Assembly (NCBI GenBank): GCA_035544575.1
Contig: DATKEC010000132.1
Location: 3,464-67,463 of the forward strand
Origin: Acidimicrobiia bacterium
GTDB lineage: Bacteria > Actinomycetota > Acidimicrobiia > Spongiisociales > ZC4RG35
DNA: 64,000 nt
Direction of reading: 5' to 3'
Shown piece after piece: positions 8,396 through 63,360 of this stretch. The position numbers and the translations under genes were made by a program. Within the stretch, counting starts at the first letter, position 1. Each line of letters opens with the position of its first letter. The notes under the pieces were generated by a model. The model was not told the origin of the DNA, made no database searches, and saw nothing but the letters and a program-made list of their open reading frames with translations.

Positions 8396-9586
8396 ATGCG
8401 CATCCTTCTCGTCACCGGGAAGGGTGGTGTTGGAAAGACGACGGTGGCGGCGACCACCGCACTCGCCGCTGCCGACCGCGGGTATCGCACGCTGGTCAGT
8501 TCCACCGACCCGGCTCACAGCCTGGCGGATGCCCTCGACATCGACCTCGGCGACCGCCCCACTCGGGTCGTCGACAATCTCGACGGTCAACAGATCGACA
8601 CTCAGGAGCGCCTCGAGAGGCATTGGGGGTCGATTCGTGACCAGCTCATGAACGTCTTCGACTGGGGAGGCGTGGGCGGAGTCGAGGCCGAGGAGTTCCT
8701 GGTGTTTCCCGGCATGGACGAGTTGTTCGCCCTGTTGGACCTGAACGAACACGCGCGGTCGGGGGCGTACGACGTCCTGGTCGTCGACTGTGCGCCGACT
8801 GCCGAAACCCTCCGGCTTCTCAGCCTGCCCGAAGTCCTGGCGTGGTACTTCGAACGGGTGATGCCCACCGAGCGGCGGATCATGCGGGCTGCCCGGCCGT
8901 TTCTCAGCCGGATGACCGACCTTCCCGTCCCGGACGACTCGGTCTTCGAGGCTGCCCAAACGGTCTTCGACGGCATCGAGCAGGTCAAGGAGCTGCTCGC
9001 CGATCCGAAGGTGACCTCGGCCCGCCTGGTGGTGAACCCCGAGAAGATGGTCATCGACGAGGCACGCCGCACCTACACCTACCTCGGCCTATTCGGGTAC
9101 GGGGTGGACGGCGTGATCGTCAACCGGGTGCTCCCCGAGGTGGTGAACGACCCGTACTTCGCCAAGTGGCGCAAGATCCAGGCCGGACATCTGGCCACGG
9201 TCGACTCGGCCTTTGCCGAGGTGACACGCCTGCGTTTGCGCCTCTTCGACGACGAAATGGTCGGCGTCTCCCGGCTCCGGGACATGGCCTTGGAGCTCTA
9301 CGGCGACATCGACCCGATCGCCGACTTCGAGGCGGTGAGCCCGTTTCACCTGCGCGAAGAGGGCGACGAGGTCGTCGTCGAGATGGATGTGCCATTCGCC
9401 TCCAAGGACGAACTCGATGTGATCCGGCGGGGGACGGAGTTGGCCATCACCATCGGGCCCTATCGGCGTTCCCTGGTGCTGCCCGACTCCCTGCAGCGGC
9501 GTCCTGTCACCTCTGCTTCACTCGTCGCCGGCCGGCTCCGCATCTGTTTCGGCCCGTCCGCCCGGCGGGCGCGGAAGCCGGCATGA
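8396..9586 (+). CDS. ArsA/Get3-family anion-transporting ATPase homologue
   Basis: ATG at 8396 (MRILLVTGKGGVGKTTVAA…) with GGGAGG 9 nt upstream. Deviant Walker A P-loop. The ORF-track N-terminal extension (8033) is in frame but overlaps the SRPBCC gene. Confidence 0.85.
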   Translation: MRILLVTGKGGVGKTTVAATTALAAADRGYRTLVSSTDPAHSLADALDIDLGDRPTRVVDNLDGQQIDTQERLERHWGSIRDQLMNVFDWGGVGGVEAEEFLVFPGMDELFALLDLNEHARSGAYDVLVVDCAPTAETLRLLSLPEVLAWYFERVMPTERRIMRAARPFLSRMTDLPVPDDSVFEAAQTVFDGIEQVKELLADPKVTSARLVVNPEKMVIDEARRTYTYLGLFGYGVDGVIVNRVLPEVVNDPYFAKWRKIQAGHLATVDSAFAEVTRLRLRLFDDEMVGVSRLRDMALELYGDIDPIADFEAVSPFHLREEGDEVVVEMDVPFASKDELDVIRRGTELAITIGPYRRSLVLPDSLQRRPVTSASLVAGRLRICFGPSARRARKPA

Positions 9587-9774
9587 GTCCCGAATCCGAG
9601 ACCGCCGCCGCATTGAAGCGGGCCGGTGCCAGGGCGGCGTTTCACCTGCTCCGGGCGGGGGTGGAGTCGCTGAAAGCGCTCGAGGCCGTCATCGACGAGT
9701 TGGGCAAGGTCGGGTCGCGTCGCGGTGAGGACGACGACGAGCCGGACGGTCCCGTTCGCATCGAAATCGAATGA
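9583..9774 (+). CDS. small hypothetical protein with acidic C-terminus
   Basis: ATGA-coupled to the ArsA-like stop and ATGA-coupled to the next gene start. 63 aa. No recognisable domain. Confidence 0.4.
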   Translation: MSPESETAAALKRAGARAAFHLLRAGVESLKALEAVIDELGKVGSRRGEDDDEPDGPVRIEIE

Positions 9775-10709
9775 CCGCCCTGGGCATGGACGTTGGCGGC
9801 TCGACGCTCAAGGTGGTGGCCCTCGACGACGACGATGTCATCGTTCACTCCTCGCGGGTGGCCGTGCCGGAGATCGCGGTCTCGGACTTCGTGGTTGGCG
9901 CTGCCAGACGGGCGGTGGCCGAGCATGCGGCCACCACACTGGGGCTCGGTGTGGCTGGCCTCGTGAAATTTCCCGCCGGCGAGTTCGTCTGGGGCCCGCA
10001 CTTGGACGGGACATCGATCCCGTATCGGTCGATGCTCGCTGCCGAGTTGGGCTTCGACGTGGCGGTCGACAACGACGCCAATCTCGCCGCGTATGCCGAA
10101 TGGGCGATCGGCGCAGGCGAACGGAAGGATCCGTTGGTGATGATCACGCTGGGAACGGGCATCGGAGCCGGCTTCGTGCTGGACGGACGTGTGTACCGGG
10201 GGGCGTCCTTTGCCGGCGAAGCAGGCCACATCGAAGTCGCCGCAGACGGCGAGGTCTGCTCGTGCGGACGCAACGGGTGTTGGGAGACGTTCGTGTCCGG
10301 AGCGAAGCTCGACCGGCTGGCAGTCGAAATCGCCCGCACCGATCCGGGCGGGGGAGTGGCCGCTCACGCCGGGACCATCACGCCCACCGGTATCCATCTG
10401 GCGAAGGCGGCCGCCGAGGGCGATTCGAGTGCCGTGGCGGCGATACACGTGGCCGGTCGCTGGCTCGGACGGGGACTGGTCAATCTCGTCCTCCTGTTCG
10501 ACCCGGTGAGGATCGTCATCGGTGGCGCGGCGGGCACCGCCGGACCCGCCCTCCTCGACCCGGCGCGGGCCGTCCTGGCCGAGACGATGCCCGGAGCCTC
10601 CTATCGCCTGCCAGTACCGGTTTGCCCGGCGCGGTTTGGATCGCTCTCTGGCGCGGTTGGTGCCGCGTTGGCCGGCCGACGTGTGCACAATGGACATCAT
10701 GACTGGTGA
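9771..10709 (+). CDS. ROK-family sugar kinase (glucokinase-like)
   Basis: MDVGGSTLKVVAL…, DNDANLAAYAEW, ITLGTGIGAGFV, CSCGRNGCWE zinc motif. Confidence 0.85.
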   Translation: MTALGMDVGGSTLKVVALDDDDVIVHSSRVAVPEIAVSDFVVGAARRAVAEHAATTLGLGVAGLVKFPAGEFVWGPHLDGTSIPYRSMLAAELGFDVAVDNDANLAAYAEWAIGAGERKDPLVMITLGTGIGAGFVLDGRVYRGASFAGEAGHIEVAADGEVCSCGRNGCWETFVSGAKLDRLAVEIARTDPGGGVAAHAGTITPTGIHLAKAAAEGDSSAVAAIHVAGRWLGRGLVNLVLLFDPVRIVIGGAAGTAGPALLDPARAVLAETMPGASYRLPVPVCPARFGSLSGAVGAALAGRRVHNGHHDW

Positions 10710-18585: not shown

Positions 18586-18882
18586 TCACTCGCCGGCCTC
18601 GCACCCCGCCGTCGGTGGTTCGTCTCCTTTGGCGATCGACTCCCGGTATTCGGCGATCGACCGGTAGACCAGCACCAGCACCACCGCCATTCCGACGGTG
18701 GCGAGCACGAACGCGACGACGGCCAGGGAGCCTGCCAACCCGGTGCAGGTCTGGATCGTCCCGTCCACCTCGACCCGACACGAGAGGTCCATGACGAGGT
18801 AGGTGATCCATCCGCTCAAACCGCCGATGACGAGCGAAGGGATCGAGATCCACGGGTTGGGGATGCGACGGCGGTCTGTCAA
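18586..18882 (-). CDS. small two-TM membrane protein (hypothetical)
   Basis: TTG start overlapping the TGA of the upstream membrane-protein gene (TTGA). Two hydrophobic helices. 6 nt upstream of the kinase gene. Confidence 0.45.
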   Translation of the reverse strand: MTDRRRIPNPWISIPSLVIGGLSGWITYLVMDLSCRVEVDGTIQTCTGLAGSLAVVAFVLATVGMAVVLVLVYRSIAEYRESIAKGDEPPTAGCEAGE

Positions 18883-19634
18883 GGCGTCTCCTTGCGGCGC
18901 CCGCGGGAGTCGAGACCGGCCGCATCGAGGATGTCGCCCGGTGCCAGTTCTGCGGGTATCGGCACCGCACGGCCGGGCGAGGCGAGCGGTATGACGGCGA
19001 CTCGGACGTCGGCGGACCAGGCCAACCATGACAACGCCAGGTAGGCGGCGACTGCCGGCAGCCACCAAGGAAAGTCGATGACGAAGGCGACGGCGACGGC
19101 CAGCGCCGGCAGACCGAACCGGCTGGCCCACAACGCGGTCGGCCGGGCACGGCTGTACCAGACGGCGAGGGCCACGGTCCCGCCGGCCACGGCCCAATCC
19201 CAGCGATCCACGCCGCCGGGCTGCAGGGCACCGATCAGGACAGGGACGGCGAGCATGCCGAGAACCAGTCCGGCGGCTTTGCGGGGCGGAGCATCGGCTG
19301 GAGGCCGGTGACGAACCGCCGCCCTCAGACCGGAGCCCAGGAGCCCTGCCAACCCGAAACCGGCGGCGCCGACCATCACCACCCAGGCGGGAGTGATCGC
19401 GTGGGTGACGGCAGGGATGGCGAGCATCGACACGAGGCCGATGCCCAGTCCCACCGACCACCGGGCCGCCCCGACCAGGGCACCGACGATCGTGATGGCG
19501 GTGAGGAGGAGATGCCCGGCCGCCAGCATCGCCCCCGCCCCGTCGGTCCACACCGCGTCAGCCCCGGTGAGGATGAGCGCGGCGGCGAGGGACGAGACGA
19601 GGAGTGCGGCAGTGGTGAGGATGGCGATGAGCAC
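18879..19634 (-). CDS. polytopic integral membrane protein (hypothetical)
   Basis: 251 aa, almost entirely hydrophobic Ala/Leu/Gly/Val segments. Heads a three-gene minus-strand operon. Confidence 0.6.
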   Translation of the reverse strand: MLIAILTTAALLVSSLAAALILTGADAVWTDGAGAMLAAGHLLLTAITIVGALVGAARWSVGLGIGLVSMLAIPAVTHAITPAWVVMVGAAGFGLAGLLGSGLRAAVRHRPPADAPPRKAAGLVLGMLAVPVLIGALQPGGVDRWDWAVAGGTVALAVWYSRARPTALWASRFGLPALAVAVAFVIDFPWWLPAVAAYLALSWLAWSADVRVAVIPLASPGRAVPIPAELAPGDILDAAGLDSRGRRKETP

Positions 19635-19681: not shown

Positions 19682-20209
19682 GTGACCGAGTTCTGGCCCG
19701 GTGAGTTCCGGTTCTGTCCGATGTGTGCCACCGCTCTGCAGGCCACCGAGCGGGGTGGGCGAACCCGGATGGCGTGCCCGGGCTGCGGCTACGTGCACTT
19801 TCGCGATCCCGGTGTCGGCGCCGCGGTTCTCCTGGAGGATGGAGCCGGTCGGGTGCTGCTCGTGCAACGGGGGAGCAGCGCCACCAAGGCGGGCCTGTGG
19901 TGCGTGCCCTGTGGTTACGTGGACTACGGCGAAGAGGTGCGGGCGGCTGCGGCGAGGGAGGTGCGGGAGGAAACAGGGCTGGAGGTGGAGGTAGGGGATC
20001 CGGTCTTCGTCAGCTCCAACTTCCACGATCCGGAGAAGCTGACCGTCGGCATCTGGTTCGCGGGGCGGATCGTGGGCGGTGTCGCCGAGGCGGGAGACGA
20101 CGCCGTCGACGTCGGGTGGTTCGAACCCGGTGACTTACCACCGCTCGCCTTCGAGACCGATGCCGAGTTGTTCCGAGTTCGCTTCGGGGTCGACGCCCGG
20201 CTCGGCTGA
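19682..20209 (+). CDS. NUDIX hydrolase with N-terminal zinc ribbon
   Basis: CPMC…CPGC, then Nudix box GYVDYGEEVRAAAAREVREETGL. GTG start. Confidence 0.85.
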   Translation: MTEFWPGEFRFCPMCATALQATERGGRTRMACPGCGYVHFRDPGVGAAVLLEDGAGRVLLVQRGSSATKAGLWCVPCGYVDYGEEVRAAAAREVREETGLEVEVGDPVFVSSNFHDPEKLTVGIWFAGRIVGGVAEAGDDAVDVGWFEPGDLPPLAFETDAELFRVRFGVDARLG

Positions 20210-20866
20210 CGGCTGGGTTGGCCTGTGAGCTGACGCCTGGGTTGCCGCCGCGGCTGACGTCTCGGCCAGCTGGGCCTGCTCCGGGTGCCAGACCGTGAGC
20301 TCGGTCCACGGGGTTCCCGGTTTGAGCGTGATCACCGTTCCGTGCGCGGGCTTGTCGACGTGCTGGTTGGCGAGGTCGCGCCCGGTGATGGACAGCCGGG
20401 CGGCCTGGACGGGATCCTGGTGGGAGACCACGACGACGTCGCCGTCGTGGCGGGAGGCGATCGACGCCAGCACGGTTCGCATCCGTGCCGCGAGTGCGGT
20501 CAAAGACTCGGAGGCGAAAGGCATGTCGAGGGGATGCTCGAGGTACGCCTCGAGCTCGCCGGGGCGCTCCTTGGGAAGATCCTCCCAGGCGATCCCGGCC
20601 CAGTCGTCGGCCATCTTCCACTCGACGAGTTCGGGATCCACCCGGATGGGGATTCCGTGATGCGCGGCGACCGGCTCGGCGGTGGCGAGAGCGCGTTCCA
20701 GCGGTGAGGACCAGACGGCGACGACCGGGGCGGAGCGCAGGTAGCGGCTGACTGCCCGAGCCTGGGCCACCCCCGCTTCGGTCAGTTCGAACCCGGGCAA
20801 GGACGCATACACGACATGCCCCGGATTCCAGACCTCCCCATGCCTCACCAAGTGCACCCGCCCCAT
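20135..20866 (-). CDS. histidine phosphatase family protein (phosphoglycerate-mutase-like)
   Basis: MGRVHLVRHGEV… (RHG catalytic motif)…SSPLERALATA. Its 3' end overlaps the NUDIX gene convergently. Confidence 0.8.
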   Translation of the reverse strand: MGRVHLVRHGEVWNPGHVVYASLPGFELTEAGVAQARAVSRYLRSAPVVAVWSSPLERALATAEPVAAHHGIPIRVDPELVEWKMADDWAGIAWEDLPKERPGELEAYLEHPLDMPFASESLTALAARMRTVLASIASRHDGDVVVVSHQDPVQAARLSITGRDLANQHVDKPAHGTVITLKPGTPWTELTVWHPEQAQLAETSAAAATQASAHRPTQPSAEPGVDPEANSEQLGIGLEGERW

Positions 20867-20870
20867 ACCC

Positions 20871-20905
20871 GCTTTTTAGCGGGGCAGCGCGTCATTAGTG
20901 ACGCG
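20871..20905 (-). promoter_or_regulatory. 35-bp conserved element, copy A (GCTTTTTAGCGGGGCAGCGCGTCATTAGTGACGCG on +). Contains palindrome CGCGTCA-N4-TGACGCG. Ends 4 nt before the phosphatase ATG.
   Basis: Seen in sequence. 30 of 35 bases are identical to copies B and C. Confidence 0.6.
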
Positions 20906-20995
20906 TTTGGCATGAGAGAAGCGATGACAGGGGGCCGACGGTGCTGCTCGCGAGGGCGCCCGAACCCGGCCGCCTTGGGCTTCTCTAGTGCGGAT

Positions 20996-21030
20996 CGCGT
21001 CGTTTCTGACGCGCTGCCCCGCTAAAAAGC
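20996..21030 (+). promoter_or_regulatory. 35-bp conserved element, copy B (CGCGTCGTTTCTGACGCGCTGCCCCGCTAAAAAGC). Ends 5 nt before the dinB ATG.
   Basis: Seen in sequence. Inverted with respect to copy A, 90 bp away. Confidence 0.6.
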
Positions 21031-21035
21031 GAAGT

Positions 21036-22208
21036 ATGGCGTGGGGGGAGCGGGTGCTGCATGTCGACATAGACGCGTTCTTCGTCGCGGTCGAGCGGCT
21101 GCGGAGTCCGGGGCTGCGCGGCAGGCCGGTCGTCGTCGGGGGGACCGGACCGCGCAGCGTCGTGGCGGCCGCGTCCTACGAAGTTCGGTCGTACGGGATC
21201 CGGTCGGCGATGCCGATGTCCCGGGCTCGGGCGCTCTGCCGGGACTTGATCGTGGTCCCGCCGGACCACGCCGAATACGCCAGGGTGTCCGAAGAGGTGT
21301 TCGCGGTGTTCCGATCGTTCACACCGCTGGTCGAGGGGCTGTCGATCGACGAGGCGTTCCTGGACATCGGCGGCCTCCGGCACCACTTTCCCGGTCCCGC
21401 AGAGGTCGGCCACGCCGTGCGAGCGGCGATCGCCGAGAAGGTCGGGATCACCGCGTCGGTCGGCGTGGCCGCTACCAAGTTCCTCGCCAAGCTCGCCTCC
21501 GAGACCGCCAAGCCCGACGGCCTCTGCCACGTCCCGGCTCACGAGCAGCAGGACTTTCTCGATCCCCTCCGCATCGAGGCCCTGTGGGGAGTGGGCCAGG
21601 CCACCCGTGCCGCCCTCGAGACGGTGGGCGTCGAGACGGTGGCGGATCTGCGGGCTGTTCCGACACGCGCACTGGAGCGGGCTGTGGGCGCCTCGGTGGC
21701 GACTCACCTCGTCGAACTCGCCCACGGGCGCGATCCCCGCAAGGTCGAGCCCGATCGCGAAGTCAAGTCCGTCTCGGTCGAGGAGACCTACGACACCGAC
21801 ATCACCGGCGAGGCGGCGCTCAGGGTCGAGCTGCGCCGTCTGGCTGACCGTCTCGGGACCCGTCTCCGCCGGTCTGGGCTGGCGGGGAGGACCATCACCC
21901 TCAAAGTGCGGACCTCGGACTTCCAGACGGTGACGCGCTCGGTGACGCGGCCCGACGCCACGAACGGCGACCGTGACCTGTTCCTGACAGCCGTCCAACT
22001 TCTCGACGCCTCCGACCGAGGCGCCAAGCCGATCCGGCTGCTCGGTATCGGTGTGAGCCATCTGGTCTCGACCGAGGAAGCCGTGCAACTCGTCACGACC
22101 GGCGACCCGCGGTGGAACGATCTCGATGCCGCCGTCGACGCCATCCGCCGCCGATTCGGCGACGACGCGGTCGGTCCGGCAGGTCTCGCCGACCTGGACG
22201 AAAAGTGA
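21036..22208 (+). CDS. dinB: DNA polymerase IV (Y-family translesion polymerase)
   Basis: MAWGERVLHVDIDAFFVAVE…SYEVRSYGIRSAMP…SIDEAFLD… ATG at 21036 is in frame with the longer track ORF. Confidence 0.9.
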   Translation: MAWGERVLHVDIDAFFVAVERLRSPGLRGRPVVVGGTGPRSVVAAASYEVRSYGIRSAMPMSRARALCRDLIVVPPDHAEYARVSEEVFAVFRSFTPLVEGLSIDEAFLDIGGLRHHFPGPAEVGHAVRAAIAEKVGITASVGVAATKFLAKLASETAKPDGLCHVPAHEQQDFLDPLRIEALWGVGQATRAALETVGVETVADLRAVPTRALERAVGASVATHLVELAHGRDPRKVEPDREVKSVSVEETYDTDITGEAALRVELRRLADRLGTRLRRSGLAGRTITLKVRTSDFQTVTRSVTRPDATNGDRDLFLTAVQLLDASDRGAKPIRLLGIGVSHLVSTEEAVQLVTTGDPRWNDLDAAVDAIRRRFGDDAVGPAGLADLDEK

Positions 22209-29333: not shown

Positions 29334-29489
29334 CACCCCCTTCGTCCGGTCCGCTGCGCGTCCCGGCCACTTCCCCCGCTTCGGCCCTGCGGGCCGGGGG
29401 GAAGCAACGGCGAGCCACCCCCCTTCGTCCGGTCCGCTGCGCGTCCCGGCCACTTCCCCGCTTCGGCCCTGCGGGCCGGCGGGAAGCAA
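29334..29489 (+). repeat. tandem direct repeat, 2 x 74 bp (~96% identical, 8-bp spacer), each containing a GC-rich imperfect hairpin (CTTCCCCC…GGCCCTGCGGGCC…GGGGGAAG)
   Basis: Seen directly. Flanked by 19-bp direct repeats GCGGCGGGGACGGAGGGGG at 29291-29309 and 29503-29521. Confidence 0.8.
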
Positions 29490-29561
29490 TGGAGCAGGCG
29501 CAGCGGCGGGGACGGAGGGGGGCGATCCACCCGCCCGCGGGTGGGAAAGTGTCACATAGTG

Positions 29562-46397: not shown

Positions 46398-46410
46398 GCC
46401 CCGTTCTCTG

Positions 46411-46440
46411 TTGCTTCCCGCCGGCCCGCAGGGCCGGATT
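46411..46440 (-). repeat. inverted copy of the core of the 74-bp repeat (TTGCTTCCCGCCGGCCCGCAGGGCCGG), forming a GC hairpin between convergent divIVA and ileS
   Basis: Seen in sequence. Matches the reverse complement of the 29380-29407 core in roughly 24 of 26 positions. Confidence 0.6.
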
Positions 46441-46465
46441 GGGGATGGGGTGTTCCTTCCCGCCG

Positions 46466-49703: not shown

Positions 49704-49946
49704 ATGCGCGCCGTCGACGACGGGTTCGAGGTGGATGTCTGGGTGGTGCCGGGCGCCTCACGCGACTCGGTGGATGGCACTCACGGCGAGGCCTTGAAGG
49801 TGCGGGTGACCGCCCCGCCCGACCGGGGTAGGGCAAACCAGGCGGTCGCGGCCCTCCTCACGGCGCACTTCGGAACGCCCGCCATCCTCCTCCGCGGCGC
49901 AACCTCCCGCCACAAGACCTACCGAATCGCGTTTCTTAGCGAATGA
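49704..49946 (+). CDS. DUF167 (YggU/UPF0235) family protein
   Basis: …FEVDVWVVPGASRDSVDGTHGEALKVRVTAPPDRGRANQAVAALLTAHFG… The alternative GTG at 49692 is in frame. Confidence 0.65.
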   Translation: MRAVDDGFEVDVWVVPGASRDSVDGTHGEALKVRVTAPPDRGRANQAVAALLTAHFGTPAILLRGATSRHKTYRIAFLSE

Positions 49947-49993
49947 GCGTTACAAAAACGTGTCGCTTCGCGTGGCGAAACCGGGATCTTGCC

Positions 49994-51163
49994 TCAGGAC
50001 GTGGCAAGCCGTCGCTCGAGCGGGGTCGCAAAGCGCGGAGTGAACCTGCTCGGTCCGATGAACTGCGAGAGCCGTGCTGCCTCCACCTCGACCAGCCTCC
50101 GACCCTCGGCGGGAATGTCCTCGAGATACTCGATCGCCAACTCGCCGTCGGCCCGCTGCGCCCAGCCGCCCACCACCCGGCCATTCCACCAGACGGTCGG
50201 CCCGACGTTGCCGTTGCGGTCGAAGAGGTGTGGAACGTGGTCGCCGAGATACCAGTCCCGTTGCTTCCAGCCCATCGGAGTGGAGTCGAGGGCCGGGAGC
50301 AGCGCAGCCCACGGGTACACCGGGTCGACCGGCGCCAGATCGTCGGCAAGGACGAAACCCGGTCCGCCCTCCAATTCCACCTCCACCGCCCCGACGTCGC
50401 CCAGCGCCGTCCGTGTCTGACCGAGATTCCAGCCGGTCCACCATTGGAGGTCGGTGACCGTCCCGGGGCCATATCCGGACAACCAGGCACGGGCCAGGTG
50501 AGCCCTCGCCACGGCGGCGTCCATCTCGGCGACGTCGGTGCCGATCCACCGGCTCATGGGCGCATAGCGATACTGGCTGCTGATCCATGTTCCGAGCGGC
50601 CTCGTCCGGGCGAGCACACCGGATGCGGTCATGAGCAGCACGATCCGGCTCCCCACCGACAACGACCCGGTTTGGGAGCCGACGGGCGGGACGAAACGCC
50701 GGTCGAGTTCCGGCCGACCGGTGGTGAGTTCCCGCGTCGAAGCCTCTCCGATCTCTTCGAGCATGTCGAGTACGACCTCGACCATGGAGTCGATGTGCGC
50801 CGCGCCGTCGGAGGCCACTCCGGTTGTCTCGAACCATCCCGCCAGCCGTTTGCGCTCTCTGGCGACGAAGGAGTCGGTGTAGGCGCGCTGGACGACGCTG
50901 ATCCGGGGGACGGGAACGACGAAGAGGGTGCGCCGCATCCCGAGCATCCGCAGGCTGGTCCGTTGCTCATACAGGGCGGATTCGACCTCGGCGACGGAGT
51001 CGGCTGCGCCCCGCGCGGCGAATGCGAGAAACACCGTGACCGGGTCGGTCGAGTGAAGCCCGACGAGGGCTGCGGCGAGGTCGTCGACGGTGGCCGGGGA
51101 GTCCACCAGCCGGTGGCGTCGGGCCAGTCGCCACCGTCGCTCCTGGTCCGAGATGAGCCTCAC
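49994..51163 (-). CDS. winged-helix DNA-binding domain protein, DUF1006 / AlkZ–YcaQ-like putative DNA glycosylase
   Basis: 389 aa. N-terminal …RRWRLARRHRLV…VGLHSTDP… arrangement and overall length resemble the YcaQ/AlkZ family. GTG start. Confidence 0.5.
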   Translation of the reverse strand: MRLISDQERRWRLARRHRLVDSPATVDDLAAALVGLHSTDPVTVFLAFAARGAADSVAEVESALYEQRTSLRMLGMRRTLFVVPVPRISVVQRAYTDSFVARERKRLAGWFETTGVASDGAAHIDSMVEVVLDMLEEIGEASTRELTTGRPELDRRFVPPVGSQTGSLSVGSRIVLLMTASGVLARTRPLGTWISSQYRYAPMSRWIGTDVAEMDAAVARAHLARAWLSGYGPGTVTDLQWWTGWNLGQTRTALGDVGAVEVELEGGPGFVLADDLAPVDPVYPWAALLPALDSTPMGWKQRDWYLGDHVPHLFDRNGNVGPTVWWNGRVVGGWAQRADGELAIEYLEDIPAEGRRLVEVEAARLSQFIGPSRFTPRFATPLERRLATS

Positions 51164-51216
51164 GCGATTGCCACCTGCATGGCGGACGAGCGTAGAGCCC
51201 GTTCTCCACTGCCAAA

Positions 51217-51251
51217 CGCGTCAGTAATGACGCGCTGCCCCGCTAAAAAGC
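51217..51251 (+). promoter_or_regulatory. 35-bp conserved element, copy C (CGCGTCAGTAATGACGCGCTGCCCCGCTAAAAAGC)
   Basis: Seen in sequence. Abuts the stop of the thioredoxin-like gene and lies 54 nt upstream of the AlkZ-like GTG. Confidence 0.6.
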
Positions 51252-51616
51252 TATCTGGGGCTGGCGGAGTGGAGGTGTTTGGCGAGGACGTCCTTCTTGA
51301 CGAGGCCCGAAGCGCGCCAGCGCTGAGTGAACGTGTTGGCGCCCGGTCGGGTCGTCAGCACCATGAAGGTCGGCGTCGACATCACCTTGAACTTCAAGAA
51401 CGCGTCCGGAACCCGGGCGGCGTTGGCTTTGACGACGTGGGCGACCCCGTCGAACTCCTCGGCGAGTTCGTTGACGATCCCATCCATCGTCCGGCACGGC
51501 TGGCAGTTGGTCTGCATGAAATCGATGAGGACCGGCTGACCGGACCTCACCAATTCGTCGAGGTGTGAGACCGACTCGAGGTCGATCGGTTTGGTTCTCT
51601 TCGTGAACAATCCCAT
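51251..51616 (-). CDS. thioredoxin-like protein with atypical CQPC active site
   Basis: 121 aa. …[27 protein letters not shown]…[12 protein letters not shown]… thioredoxin fold. The longer track ORF (to 52357) is an antisense artefact over moaA. Confidence 0.75.
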
Positions 51617-62278: not shown

Positions 62279-63360
62279 CCGCCCACCAGCAGCGGAACCT
62301 CGACCTCGTGCCGTGTCAACCCACCGTGGTACCCGACGAGACGCTTGTCGAAGCCCCGCGGCAGCAACAACGAGCGGTCCGCCGCCAGCGCCACCACGTC
62401 GGGCATCCGCTGGTCGAGTTCGGGGTGCGGATCCCCGTCGTGGCCGAACCAGGCGATGAAGTCGTCGCGCAACACCAGTTGGGCCTGGGTGTCTGCCAAC
62501 AGATCGGCGATGGCATCCACATCACCGCGCGCCATCAGCGATCGCGAGTCTCCGAACCAGATCTGGGACTCCATGTCGCGATGCCGCAGCAGGGTCTTGT
62601 CCGACTCGCGGTAGTCGAGGTGGCCGTGGTCGGCGGTTCCGACGAGGGCGACCTCGACCTGCTGGCAGAGTCGTTGCCACAGCCGCCCGGCCTCGGTGAC
62701 GGTCCGCGCATAGGCGGCACTCGCTCGACCGCTGACGTGGGCGGCTACGTCGACGTCCGGCCAGTACGCGAACACGAAACGCCCGGGGGCGTTAGCCAGC
62801 TGCACCGTGGCCTCGACCCACTCGGCCTTCGACCACACCGCCTCGAAGCGGCAACCCCGATAAAGCGCGGTTGACAGCGGTGATCCGGCGAAACCACCGG
62901 GCTGGACCGTGACCGGCTCGATTCCCGCCTCGCGCAGCCGTTCCCACAGCGTGGGGCCGGGCAGGAAGGCTTCGAAGTCGAGGGGCACCGGCGTTCCGGA
63001 CGGTGTCATGAACTTGAGGACGTTGGTGACCACTCCCGCGCTGGGCAACCACATGAGATGGCCGAGCACGCCGTGACCTGCCGCTACCCGGCCGGTCGCC
63101 ACCGACGCCAGGCTGACGGTGGTGGTCGTCGGGAACGGAGCGTGGAGGATGCCGGCCACACTCGACGCGAGGTCGTCGACGCCGGCGGTCTGGGAGGCGC
63201 CCAAACCGTCGAACAGGGCGAGACACACCGACGGGCCGTCTGGCACGAGTTCTGAGAGTTCGGGCGAGAGGCGATCGGCCCGGGACGAGCCGGTGAACCG
63301 GTGTTCGATTTCTGCGACGAGATTGACCAGGCCGCGTCCCGTGGTCGACGGGATCAGCAC
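62263..63360 (-). CDS. alkaline-phosphatase-superfamily protein (type I phosphodiesterase / nucleotide pyrophosphatase-like)
   Basis: …VCLALFDGLGAS… metal-binding N-terminal motif, …GTADHGH… Start uncertain: GTG 63360 (no overlap), GTG 63420 or ATG 63486 (overlapping the upstream gene). Confidence 0.65.
   Translation of the reverse strand: MLIPSTTGRGLVNLVAEIEHRFTGSSRADRLSPELSELVPDGPSVCLALFDGLGASQTAGVDDLASSVAGILHAPFPTTTTVSLASVATGRVAAGHGVLGHLMWLPSAGVVTNVLKFMTPSGTPVPLDFEAFLPGPTLWERLREAGIEPVTVQPGGFAGSPLSTALYRGCRFEAVWSKAEWVEATVQLANAPGRFVFAYWPDVDVAAHVSGRASAAYARTVTEAGRLWQRLCQQVEVALVGTADHGHLDYRESDKTLLRHRDMESQIWFGDSRSLMARGDVDAIADLLADTQAQLVLRDDFIAWFGHDGDPHPELDQRMPDVVALAADRSLLLPRGFDKRLVGYHGGLTRHEVEVPLLVGGQRTT

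Follow-up and report, generated by a model that had tools for sequence, protein, structure and literature searches.

Repetitive extragenic palindromic sequences (REPs) and the ends of IS200/IS605 elements are known to be recognized as single-stranded DNA. When REPs are paired in dimers (REP doublets forming hairpins, REPINs) one dimer type predominates, the spacers vary from 20 to 100 bp, and derivatives of the form a-palindrome-a^c occur (PMC3337134, Bertels & Rainey; PMC3733652). In this study we examined a stretch of 64,000 nucleotides from an uncultured Acidimicrobiia bacterium (contig DATKEC010000132.1), which as a whole is called the window here, and in it a feature of 160 bp that lies between the divergent genes for a histidine phosphatase and for the Y-family polymerase DinB. 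It had been predicted from the sequence that two inverted copies of a 35-bp palindrome-containing element form here a possibly undescribed DNA-damage operator/promoter module. Our results point, though not strongly, to a short interspersed palindromic repeat that is present here as an inverted doublet and that is comparable, as a singlet, to the REP and, as a doublet, to the REPIN, and the explanation that we favor on balance is that of a REP/REPIN-like repeat the end of which has been co-opted locally as a -10 box. No description of such repeats in Acidimicrobiia was found in the papers that were searched.

The repeat unit and its copies

Three exact copies of the 24-mer TGACGCGCTGCCCCGCTAAAAAGC are present in the window, at 20871-20894 on the minus strand and at 21007-21030 and 51228-51251 on the plus strand, just where the original prediction had placed them, and 100 shuffles gave no match to it even with up to three mismatches tolerated. 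The palindrome CGCGTC-N6-GACGCG also occurs three times in the window (0.47 expected) and only at 20888-20905, 20996-21013, and 51217-51234. The three copies, designated A, B, and C, can be followed beyond the 24-mer, with 92% identity between A and C across 50 nt and 83% between A and B across 53 nt. Thus, the repeat unit is not 35 bp but about 53 nt long and the spacer between A and B is really 55-56 nt and not 90 bp; over the 35 positions that had been compared, A and B are identical at 31 and not at 30. Copy A (20871-20923, minus strand) was detected by nhmmer with E = 4.9e-14 and by cmsearch with 67.9 bits, copy B (20979-21030, plus strand) by nhmmer and by cmsearch with 64.1 bits, and copy C (51199-51251, plus strand) by cmsearch with 69.9 bits. 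The spacer of the A-B doublet (20924-20978, 55 nt) has no TA dinucleotide and therefore no -10-like hexamer.

Both genes that flank the doublet are supported by Pfam, the phosphatase gene (20135-20866, minus strand) by His_Phos_1 and also by its orthologues, and dinB (21036-22208, plus strand) by IMS and IMS_C. The outer end of copy A is 4 nt from the phosphatase ATG (20866, minus strand) and that of copy B is 5 nt from the dinB ATG (21036), in agreement with the distances given before. Copy C is directed toward the 3' end of a thioredoxin gene (51251-51610, minus strand), which is convergent with it, and toward no gene start; the G of this gene's TAG stop codon, read on the minus strand, is also the final base of the copy. 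The AlkZ-like DNA glycosylase gene (49994-51163, minus strand) is on the opposite side of copy C, the left end of which is 36 nt from the GTG of that gene. Just beyond the 3' end of the AlkZ-like gene there is a weak, decayed copy at about 49931-49985 on the minus strand (nhmmer E = 7.4; cmsearch 16.4 bits, E = 0.036), and together with copy C it brackets the gene as an inverted pair.

The unit begins with a left block, (G/C)TTCT-N5-TGC, which is followed by a hairpin with a 7-bp stem and an A/T-rich loop of 4-6 nt and then by the right flank CTGCCCCGCTAAAAAGC. In an alignment of 27 copies the left block and a right flank of 17 nt were conserved, with a stem of 7 bp and a loop of 4 nt between them, and it is the unpaired flanks, rather than the stem, that are the best conserved parts of the element. 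The hairpin of copy A (20888-20905, minus strand) reads CGCGTCA-CTAA-TGACGCG on the element strand, and that of copy B (20996-21013, plus strand) reads CGCGTC-GTTTCT-GACGCG with G·T as the closing pair. Where the flank permits, the end of the element and its flank make a further small hairpin, CCCCGC-TAAAAA-GCGGGG, the loop of which is the A-run. Examples of it are found in the window at 20866-20870 and in related loci (all of which are given L numbers here) L013, L016, L023, and L027, and it gives several genes the terminus ..PAF*. In the 25 nt next to the outer end, runs of G seem to be commoner than expected. Some other features of the unit were considered and set aside: a small conserved open reading frame (ORF) ending in ..DALPR* is a by-product of the repeat that overlaps real gene starts, a tRNA-like origin was rejected as ARAGORN found no tRNA at the copies, and a sigma-54-like TGGCA-N5-..GC in the left block of the window type is missing from the other genome types.

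A covariance model identified 30 full copies in 253 kb of DNA that comprised the window and 18 related Acidimicrobiia contigs, and a profile search run on the same DNA gave extra copies beside the seeds, which end in ...AAAAACG or ...AAGAAC. When the 20-mer core was searched in one genome per prokaryotic species, 4 copies were found in an Acidimicrobiaceae metagenome-assembled genome (MAG) and 5 in an Acidimicrobiia MAG, and one further match in a cyanobacterial MAG was without the remainder of the element. Per MAG there are 4-5 exact copies of the 20-mer and a similar number of variants at most 5 kb away, as counted in the fetched DNA. A metagenome scan added 7 true copies, which are on high-GC contigs, while the other 11 matches were chance matches on low-GC contigs. 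In IMG/VR a 15-mer gave 43 matches, all of them by chance on unrelated contigs, and as no true copy was present there an origin from phage or prophage was ruled out. The family is restricted to one clade of uncultured Acidimicrobiia. The exact DinB sequence, with either start codon, has no record in public assemblies, and the exact phosphatase sequence was matched by one Logan contig only, which is broken inside the element. Short-read contigs from several projects were frequently found to terminate in a copy or no more than about 100 nt away from it, with copies at L001 1-26, L002 3430-3482, L013 46-98, L018 38-90, L022 92-144, and L027 1341-1390. This suggests that the repeat breaks assemblies and is probably under-counted in MAGs, and the breaks hint at more copies than were counted.

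Placement of the copies and the orthologous locus

When orthologous sites were grouped and the gene beside the AAAAAGC end was classified, there were 20 distinct sites with a readable outer neighbor. At 13 of the 20 sites what this end faces is the stop codon of a gene convergent with the element, and at the other 7 it is the start of a co-directional gene. The start-facing sites are those of the histidine phosphatase gene, dinB, purK, a CcdA-like gene, a small zinc-ribbon gene, a DksA/TraR gene, and one gene without an assigned function. Three of the stop-facing sites were found in more than one genome, beside the genes for thioredoxin (three genomes), AtuA (two genomes), and NUDIX (two genomes), and the others are beside genes for an hspR-like MerR, PafC, ArsR, a luciferase-like monooxygenase, AlkZ, MgtE, CtaG, ATP_bind_1, and two more; MarR and CNNM genes are also among the neighbors. 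All copies are intergenic or their overlap with coding sequence is limited to the final 1-10 codons. They occur in intergenic regions of every sort and are mostly close up against stop codons. In five unrelated genes the ..AF* terminus is encoded by the element itself (GCT TTT TAG), and one gene reaches 30 nt into the element. No start codon was found downstream of the element at the stop-facing copies. [quoted passage not shown] Only dinB, AlkZ, and pafC are DNA-damage genes among about 30 neighbors, and the neighbors do not form a repair regulon.

In L011 (4245-7573) homologues of pafB and pafC, with HTH_PafC, WYL, and WCX domains, are adjacent to a copy with which the stop codon of pafC overlaps. 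The gene that follows in L011 encodes a DUF559/AbiEi_4 protein (nuclease-fold and winged-helix) and has two inverted copies within 0-9 nt of it. The GC content at third codon positions of this gene is below that of its neighbors, and its product could be a candidate partner enzyme of the repeats.

Neighboring copies are paired in one way only. In all eight neighboring pairs the arrangement is (-)...(+), with the left blocks inward and the AAAAAGC ends outward. Four pairs are tight doublets, in which the spacer measures 28, 28, 43, and 56 nt, and four are wide pairs that enclose a 71-aa gene, a DUF559/AbiEi_4 gene, a CNNM transporter gene, and a 225-aa gene together with AlkZ, respectively. There is no target-site duplication, as no direct repeat flanks any of the 9 pairs examined, there is no transposase among the genes enclosed by pairs, and no recurrence elsewhere of the genes enclosed by the wide pairs was detected by tblastn.

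The dinB/phosphatase locus was fetched from seven more genomes, so that eight orthologous loci were compared in all. In L008 and L078 there is a plain doublet between dinB and the phosphatase gene, and the spacers of these doublets cannot be aligned with that of the window. In L030, the phosphatase of which is about 89% identical to that of L078, a DM13 gene (9227-9814) is present between the partners of the doublet. In L079 there is a transglutaminase-core gene (9140-9802), which is flanked by rearranged units of the form left block-palindrome-left block (rc), that is, the a-palindrome-a^c form. The DM13 and transglutaminase-core genes are accessory genes that were received between repeat units independently. 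The element is decayed in L031, L077, and L032 and absent in L033. Copies are kept at orthologous sites across species, and the copies of one genome are more alike mutually than are orthologous copies between genomes. At another site, a luciferase-like gene in L029 has the terminus ..ADLVA* beside a single copy, and in L003 this gene has the terminus ..DLVFSGAAPHE* with an extra inverted copy and the 71-aa gene. The differences at the orthologous locus and at the luciferase site lead to the conclusion that the units duplicate or rearrange and that DNA is inserted between the partners.

The hairpin, the -10 boxes, and competing explanations

Stem pairing in 29 copies was preserved in 91% of the cells on the element strand compared to 82% on the complementary strand. 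Wobble pairs that are possible only on the element strand were found 22 times and those possible only on the other strand 3 times (binomial p = 1.6e-4, uncorrected for relatedness). In orthologous copies of closely related genomes compensatory stems were found, namely, CGCTTCA/TGGAGCG, GGTACCA/TGGAGCC, CGTACTA/TGGTCCG, and GTGCCA/TGGCAC. That the stem is under selection had been proposed, and this is borne out by the compensatory changes that preserve the pairing. As the compensatory and the G·T changes fit one strand, it follows that the stem is selected as a single-strand structure and not as the double-stranded operator of a dimeric regulator. When the doublet was folded as single-stranded DNA the energy was -68.6 kcal/mol with z = -10.6, and the folds of single units were unremarkable in stability with z = -0.5 to -2.8.

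A repeat of the REP/REPIN type would be accounted for if a trans-acting enzyme, RAYT (REP-associated tyrosine transposase)/HUH-like or equivalent, reads the hairpin as single-stranded DNA, which would be feasible at every copy, and copies or homogenizes the units. Such copying or homogenization would be the reason why copies are more alike within a genome than between genomes. The long palindromic doublets would then be fragile sites for the insertion of foreign DNA. At the dinB/phosphatase locus the resident element would have been co-opted, with its terminal TAAAAA used as the -10 of a leaderless phosphatase mRNA, and in the source genome alone this hexamer may serve dinB too, after a deletion of about 11 nt that removed the ancestral TAGCGT box. 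There are several points that weigh against this explanation. A scan of 30 proteins that flank copies or are enclosed by them gave no Y1_Tnp domain (RAYT), no other HUH gene was seen near any copy, the known copy number is low with about 10 copies in the best-sampled MAG, and the unit exceeds the classical 20-40 bp and has no unpaired GTAG/CGTC tag. Orthologous copies have been kept though the phosphatases are only about 78-80% identical, with the 3' flank nearly invariant, and this conservation of sites exceeds that of a purely selfish repeat and leaves room for a host function. The presence of dinB, of AlkZ, which is bracketed in two genomes, and of pafC suggests slightly more DNA-damage biology than chance. 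Finally, the asymmetry in the wobbles would be compatible with RNA no less than with single-stranded DNA.

The last point leads to the question whether the element acts as RNA, that is, as a module of untranslated regions the hairpin of which stabilizes, processes, or terminates transcripts or tunes translation and which has been spread by duplication. The one-strand wobbles, which are compatible with G·U pairs, and the compensatory changes are in accord with this, most copies are directly after stop codons, where REP RNAs act (PMC3733652), and the hairpin-forming strand is the sense strand for both dinB and the phosphatase gene. However, at copies C, L005a, L003b, and L023 the hairpin strand is antisense to all adjacent genes and would therefore be absent from any mRNA. 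There is no U-tract after the hairpin on either strand, and a promoter/terminator scan of 20600-21300 gave no intrinsic terminator and no sigma-70-type site. With Rfam 15 there was no match at the gathering threshold in the whole window, and in 20500-21400 there were only matches with E > 1. The folds of single units are ordinary, as mentioned above, and it is the unpaired flanks and not the stem that are most conserved, and both of these points speak against an RNA module. We therefore regard an RNA-level function as an unlikely explanation of the family as a whole.

The REP/REPIN-like reading includes the use of one end as a -10 box, and for this the orthologues of the two flanking genes are informative. 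The TAAAAA of copy A (20873-20878, minus strand) is at -12 to -7 of the phosphatase ATG and is the candidate for a co-opted -10, and the TAAAAA of copy B (21023-21028, plus strand) is at -13 to -8 of the dinB ATG. The N-terminus of the phosphatase, M-x-x-R-V-H-L-V-R-H-G, is conserved and there is no Shine-Dalgarno sequence upstream of it. GCTA(A/G)AAA is present 6-7 nt upstream of the phosphatase ATG in seven genomes, and it is still retained there in three genomes in which the element is otherwise decayed; at the same position there is TAGCGT in L079 and TACTCT-N8-GTG in L033, the most distant orthologue. From this conservation TAAAAA is probably the -10 of a leaderless phosphatase mRNA, though it is without the usual T at -7. 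The identical phosphatase has been annotated publicly (P0001, 237 aa) with a start 6 codons downstream (window 20849-20866), and the N-terminus conserved in the orthologues favors the longer, probably leaderless form. As to dinB, the GTG start in the other eight genomes is preceded at 6-7 nt by a canonical box (TAGCGT, TACCGT, or TACGCT), which is downstream of the element or is present without it. In the window (21031-21060) about 11 nt that include TAGCGT are gone compared to the eight orthologues, the ancestral GTG has changed to GCG, and the new ATG is one codon upstream, 5 nt from the element, with the TAAAAA of copy B as the sole remaining -10-like hexamer. The loss of the box and the new ATG suggest that the tight spacing between dinB and the element is a recent accident of the source genome. 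Thus, of the leaderless starts with TAAAAA as the -10 that had been predicted for both genes, the one at the phosphatase gene is upheld by orthologues that keep the box, whereas the one at dinB finds no support in the orthologues, which have their own -10.

Nearby leaderless genes have canonical TANNNT boxes outside the element, as was seen for purK, the 225-aa gene, and the region upstream of AlkZ. In this last region of the window (minus strand, 51164-51198, upstream of the AlkZ-like GTG) there is TACGCT-N8-ATGCAG with a stop 6 codons later, which matches TACCCT-N8-ATGCAG, made up of the promoter and the initial two codons of the 225-aa gene that is between the element and AlkZ in L005. It seems from this match that the 225-aa gene was deleted in the window and that its promoter was left driving AlkZ, with AGGTGG as the ribosome-binding site. 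A role for AAAAAG as an unconventional Shine-Dalgarno sequence for the 16S 3' tail was rejected by reasoning, the spacing being off by about 6 nt.

These data also bear on the proposal of a promoter/operator that responds to damage or stress, in which a palindrome bound by a regulator or a PafBC-type -26 motif would act together with TAAAAA as the -10 to give leaderless transcripts. The positions of TAAAAA before both start codons agree with it, and the phosphatase orthologues retain GCTA(A/G)AAA or a canonical TANNNT at the same position. The spacing in TGACGCGC-N8-TAAAAA equals that in the mycobacterial TGTCRGTG-N8-TANNNT, and PafB touches a -26 motif (PMC11804915). In addition, pafB-pafC is beside a copy in L011, and dinB and AlkZ are among the neighbors. 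It had been stated that neither a LexA box nor a RecA-NDp/PafBC motif is present near dinB, and our scans agree: the LexA-type GAAC-N4-GTTC had a single match in the window, at 63295 (1.14 expected), and none near dinB, and TGTCRGTG-N8-TANNNT with 2 mismatches had 13 matches compared to 11.2 expected, none of which is in 20700-21100 or 51150-51300. Against the proposal, most of the distinct sites are stop-facing, several of them overlapping coding sequence, and no start codon follows the element there; under the proposal these copies would drive antisense RNAs. The TAAAAA is without T at -7, the octamer at the position equivalent to -26 differs between genomes (TGACGCGC, TGGAGCGC, GGTCCGGA), a separate canonical -10 lies between the element and the start codon of purK and of the dinB orthologues, the neighbors are no repair regulon, and the covariation of the stem on one strand is unlike that of an operator. 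Comparison of the orthologous intergenic regions, which had been suggested as a check, showed in eight genomes a dinB -10 outside the element. For these reasons a damage operator/promoter module, which was the central claim of the original prediction, is in our view improbable.

A different kind of host function would be that of a domesticated, strand-specific DNA hairpin, such that single-stranding by damage or replication switches on outward transcription. This would give sense RNA for dinB and the phosphatase gene and antisense RNA for trx, hspR, and pafC, its reader might be a factor of the WYL/PafBC type that senses single-stranded DNA, and the palindromic doublets would be preferred landing pads for new genes. 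We give this only a slight chance, but if true it would be a mobile, structure-gated stress promoter of an undescribed kind.

It is equally doubtful that the family is a DDE-type MITE or an insertion cassette mobilized in trans, with the pairs as terminal inverted repeats and the singlets as solo ends. Inverted ends of 53 nt in one configuration with a variable cargo of 28 nt to 2 kb would agree with this, and so would the contig breaks at copies, but 0 of the 9 pairs has a target-site duplication, the enclosed genes include no transposase, and singlets with a clean, conserved inner boundary are more numerous than pairs. Moreover, the ends remain with dinB and the phosphatase gene despite different inserted genes, which argues that the pair is not moving as a unit. 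Three further candidates were rejected: integron attC sites, as cassette sites are expected as direct repeats; invertible segments, as spacers of 28-56 nt are too short for inversion; and transposons, as the enclosed genes (DUF559/AbiEi_4, CNNM, 71-aa, 225-aa and AlkZ, DM13, and transglutaminase core) do not encode transposases and do not recur elsewhere.

Two other observations were made in the window. A second, unrelated repeat family is present as an 83-bp unit that is tandemly duplicated at 29336-29500, with 41 nt identical at 29336-29376 and 29419-29459 and with a GC-rich hairpin (..GGCCCTGCGGGCC..). An inverted copy of it at 46405-46450, which is 84-85% complementary, is just downstream of a 1052-aa gene, and this repeat looks like a repeated terminator-type palindrome. 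ARAGORN called a tRNA-Arg (TCG) at 19315-19393 on the minus strand, inside a conserved 251-aa membrane-protein ORF (18879-19634) that is syntenic in all related loci, and this call is probably a false positive.

Comparison with described repeats and promoters

With PafBC (RecA-NDp) promoters of mycobacteria the element has in common an upstream motif, 8 nt from the -10, that replaces a -35, at genes that are often leaderless repair genes, and pafBC homologues are present in the Acidimicrobiia clade that carries the repeat. However, the sequence of the motif is unmatched, the octamer is variable among genomes, and most copies do not precede genes, so that only the N8 spacing is common to both. 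Correia elements, which are MITEs of Neisseria, are likewise short intergenic inverted-repeat elements near genes the ends of which can supply -10 boxes, and they likewise form long hairpins when transcribed. Their TA target duplications and constant internal segment set them apart from the repeat described here, which shows no duplication, has spacers that bear no relation to each other, and often occurs as a singlet. Intergenic repeats of actinobacteria that resemble it are the mycobacterial interspersed repetitive units (MIRUs), the ends of which overlap the flanking stop and start codons. MIRUs are tandem, direct, operon-internal, and non-palindromic, whereas the repeats here are dispersed, inverted, and hairpin-forming.

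For annotation, the consequence is that the palindrome adjacent to dinB is kept from being entered as a new SOS-like operator. The family appears to be the first of the REP/REPIN-like type in Acidimicrobiia, a class of which nearly all knowledge comes from metagenomes, and its repeats break short-read assemblies of the genomes that carry them. It also provides clean natural examples for evolution: a hairpin that compensatory changes have preserved at orthologous sites, a palindromic doublet that has taken up genes between its partners, and an A-rich end of a repeat that appears to have been turned into the -10 of a leaderless gene.

Compared to REPs and REPINs, the unit here is about 53 nt as opposed to 20-40, about 10 copies were found per MAG as opposed to tens to hundreds, the copies have been kept at the orthologous sites of different species, and the host belongs to an actinobacterial class, Actinobacteria not being mentioned in the REP survey (PMC3733652). 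The REP super-families tagged by GTAG/CGTC (Di Nocera 2013, PMC3733652) have an unpaired tag at the end of the stem, which is missing here: CGTC is found only within the paired stem of the window-type copies and is absent from the variants in L008, L030, and L078, and there is no GTAG. The likeness to REPs and REPINs, on the other hand, extends to the unit itself, which has three parts, with an imperfect palindrome between a 5' and a 3' flank, and to its occurrence both singly and as doublets, which are inverted, have one predominant configuration, and contain variable, unconserved spacers. As in REPs, the copies are extragenic and chiefly just downstream of genes, resemble one another most within a genome, persist vertically, and are without duplication of the target. 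Derivatives of the form a-palindrome-a^c and DNA inserted between dimer partners are found in both, and in both the doublet is able to fold into one long hairpin.

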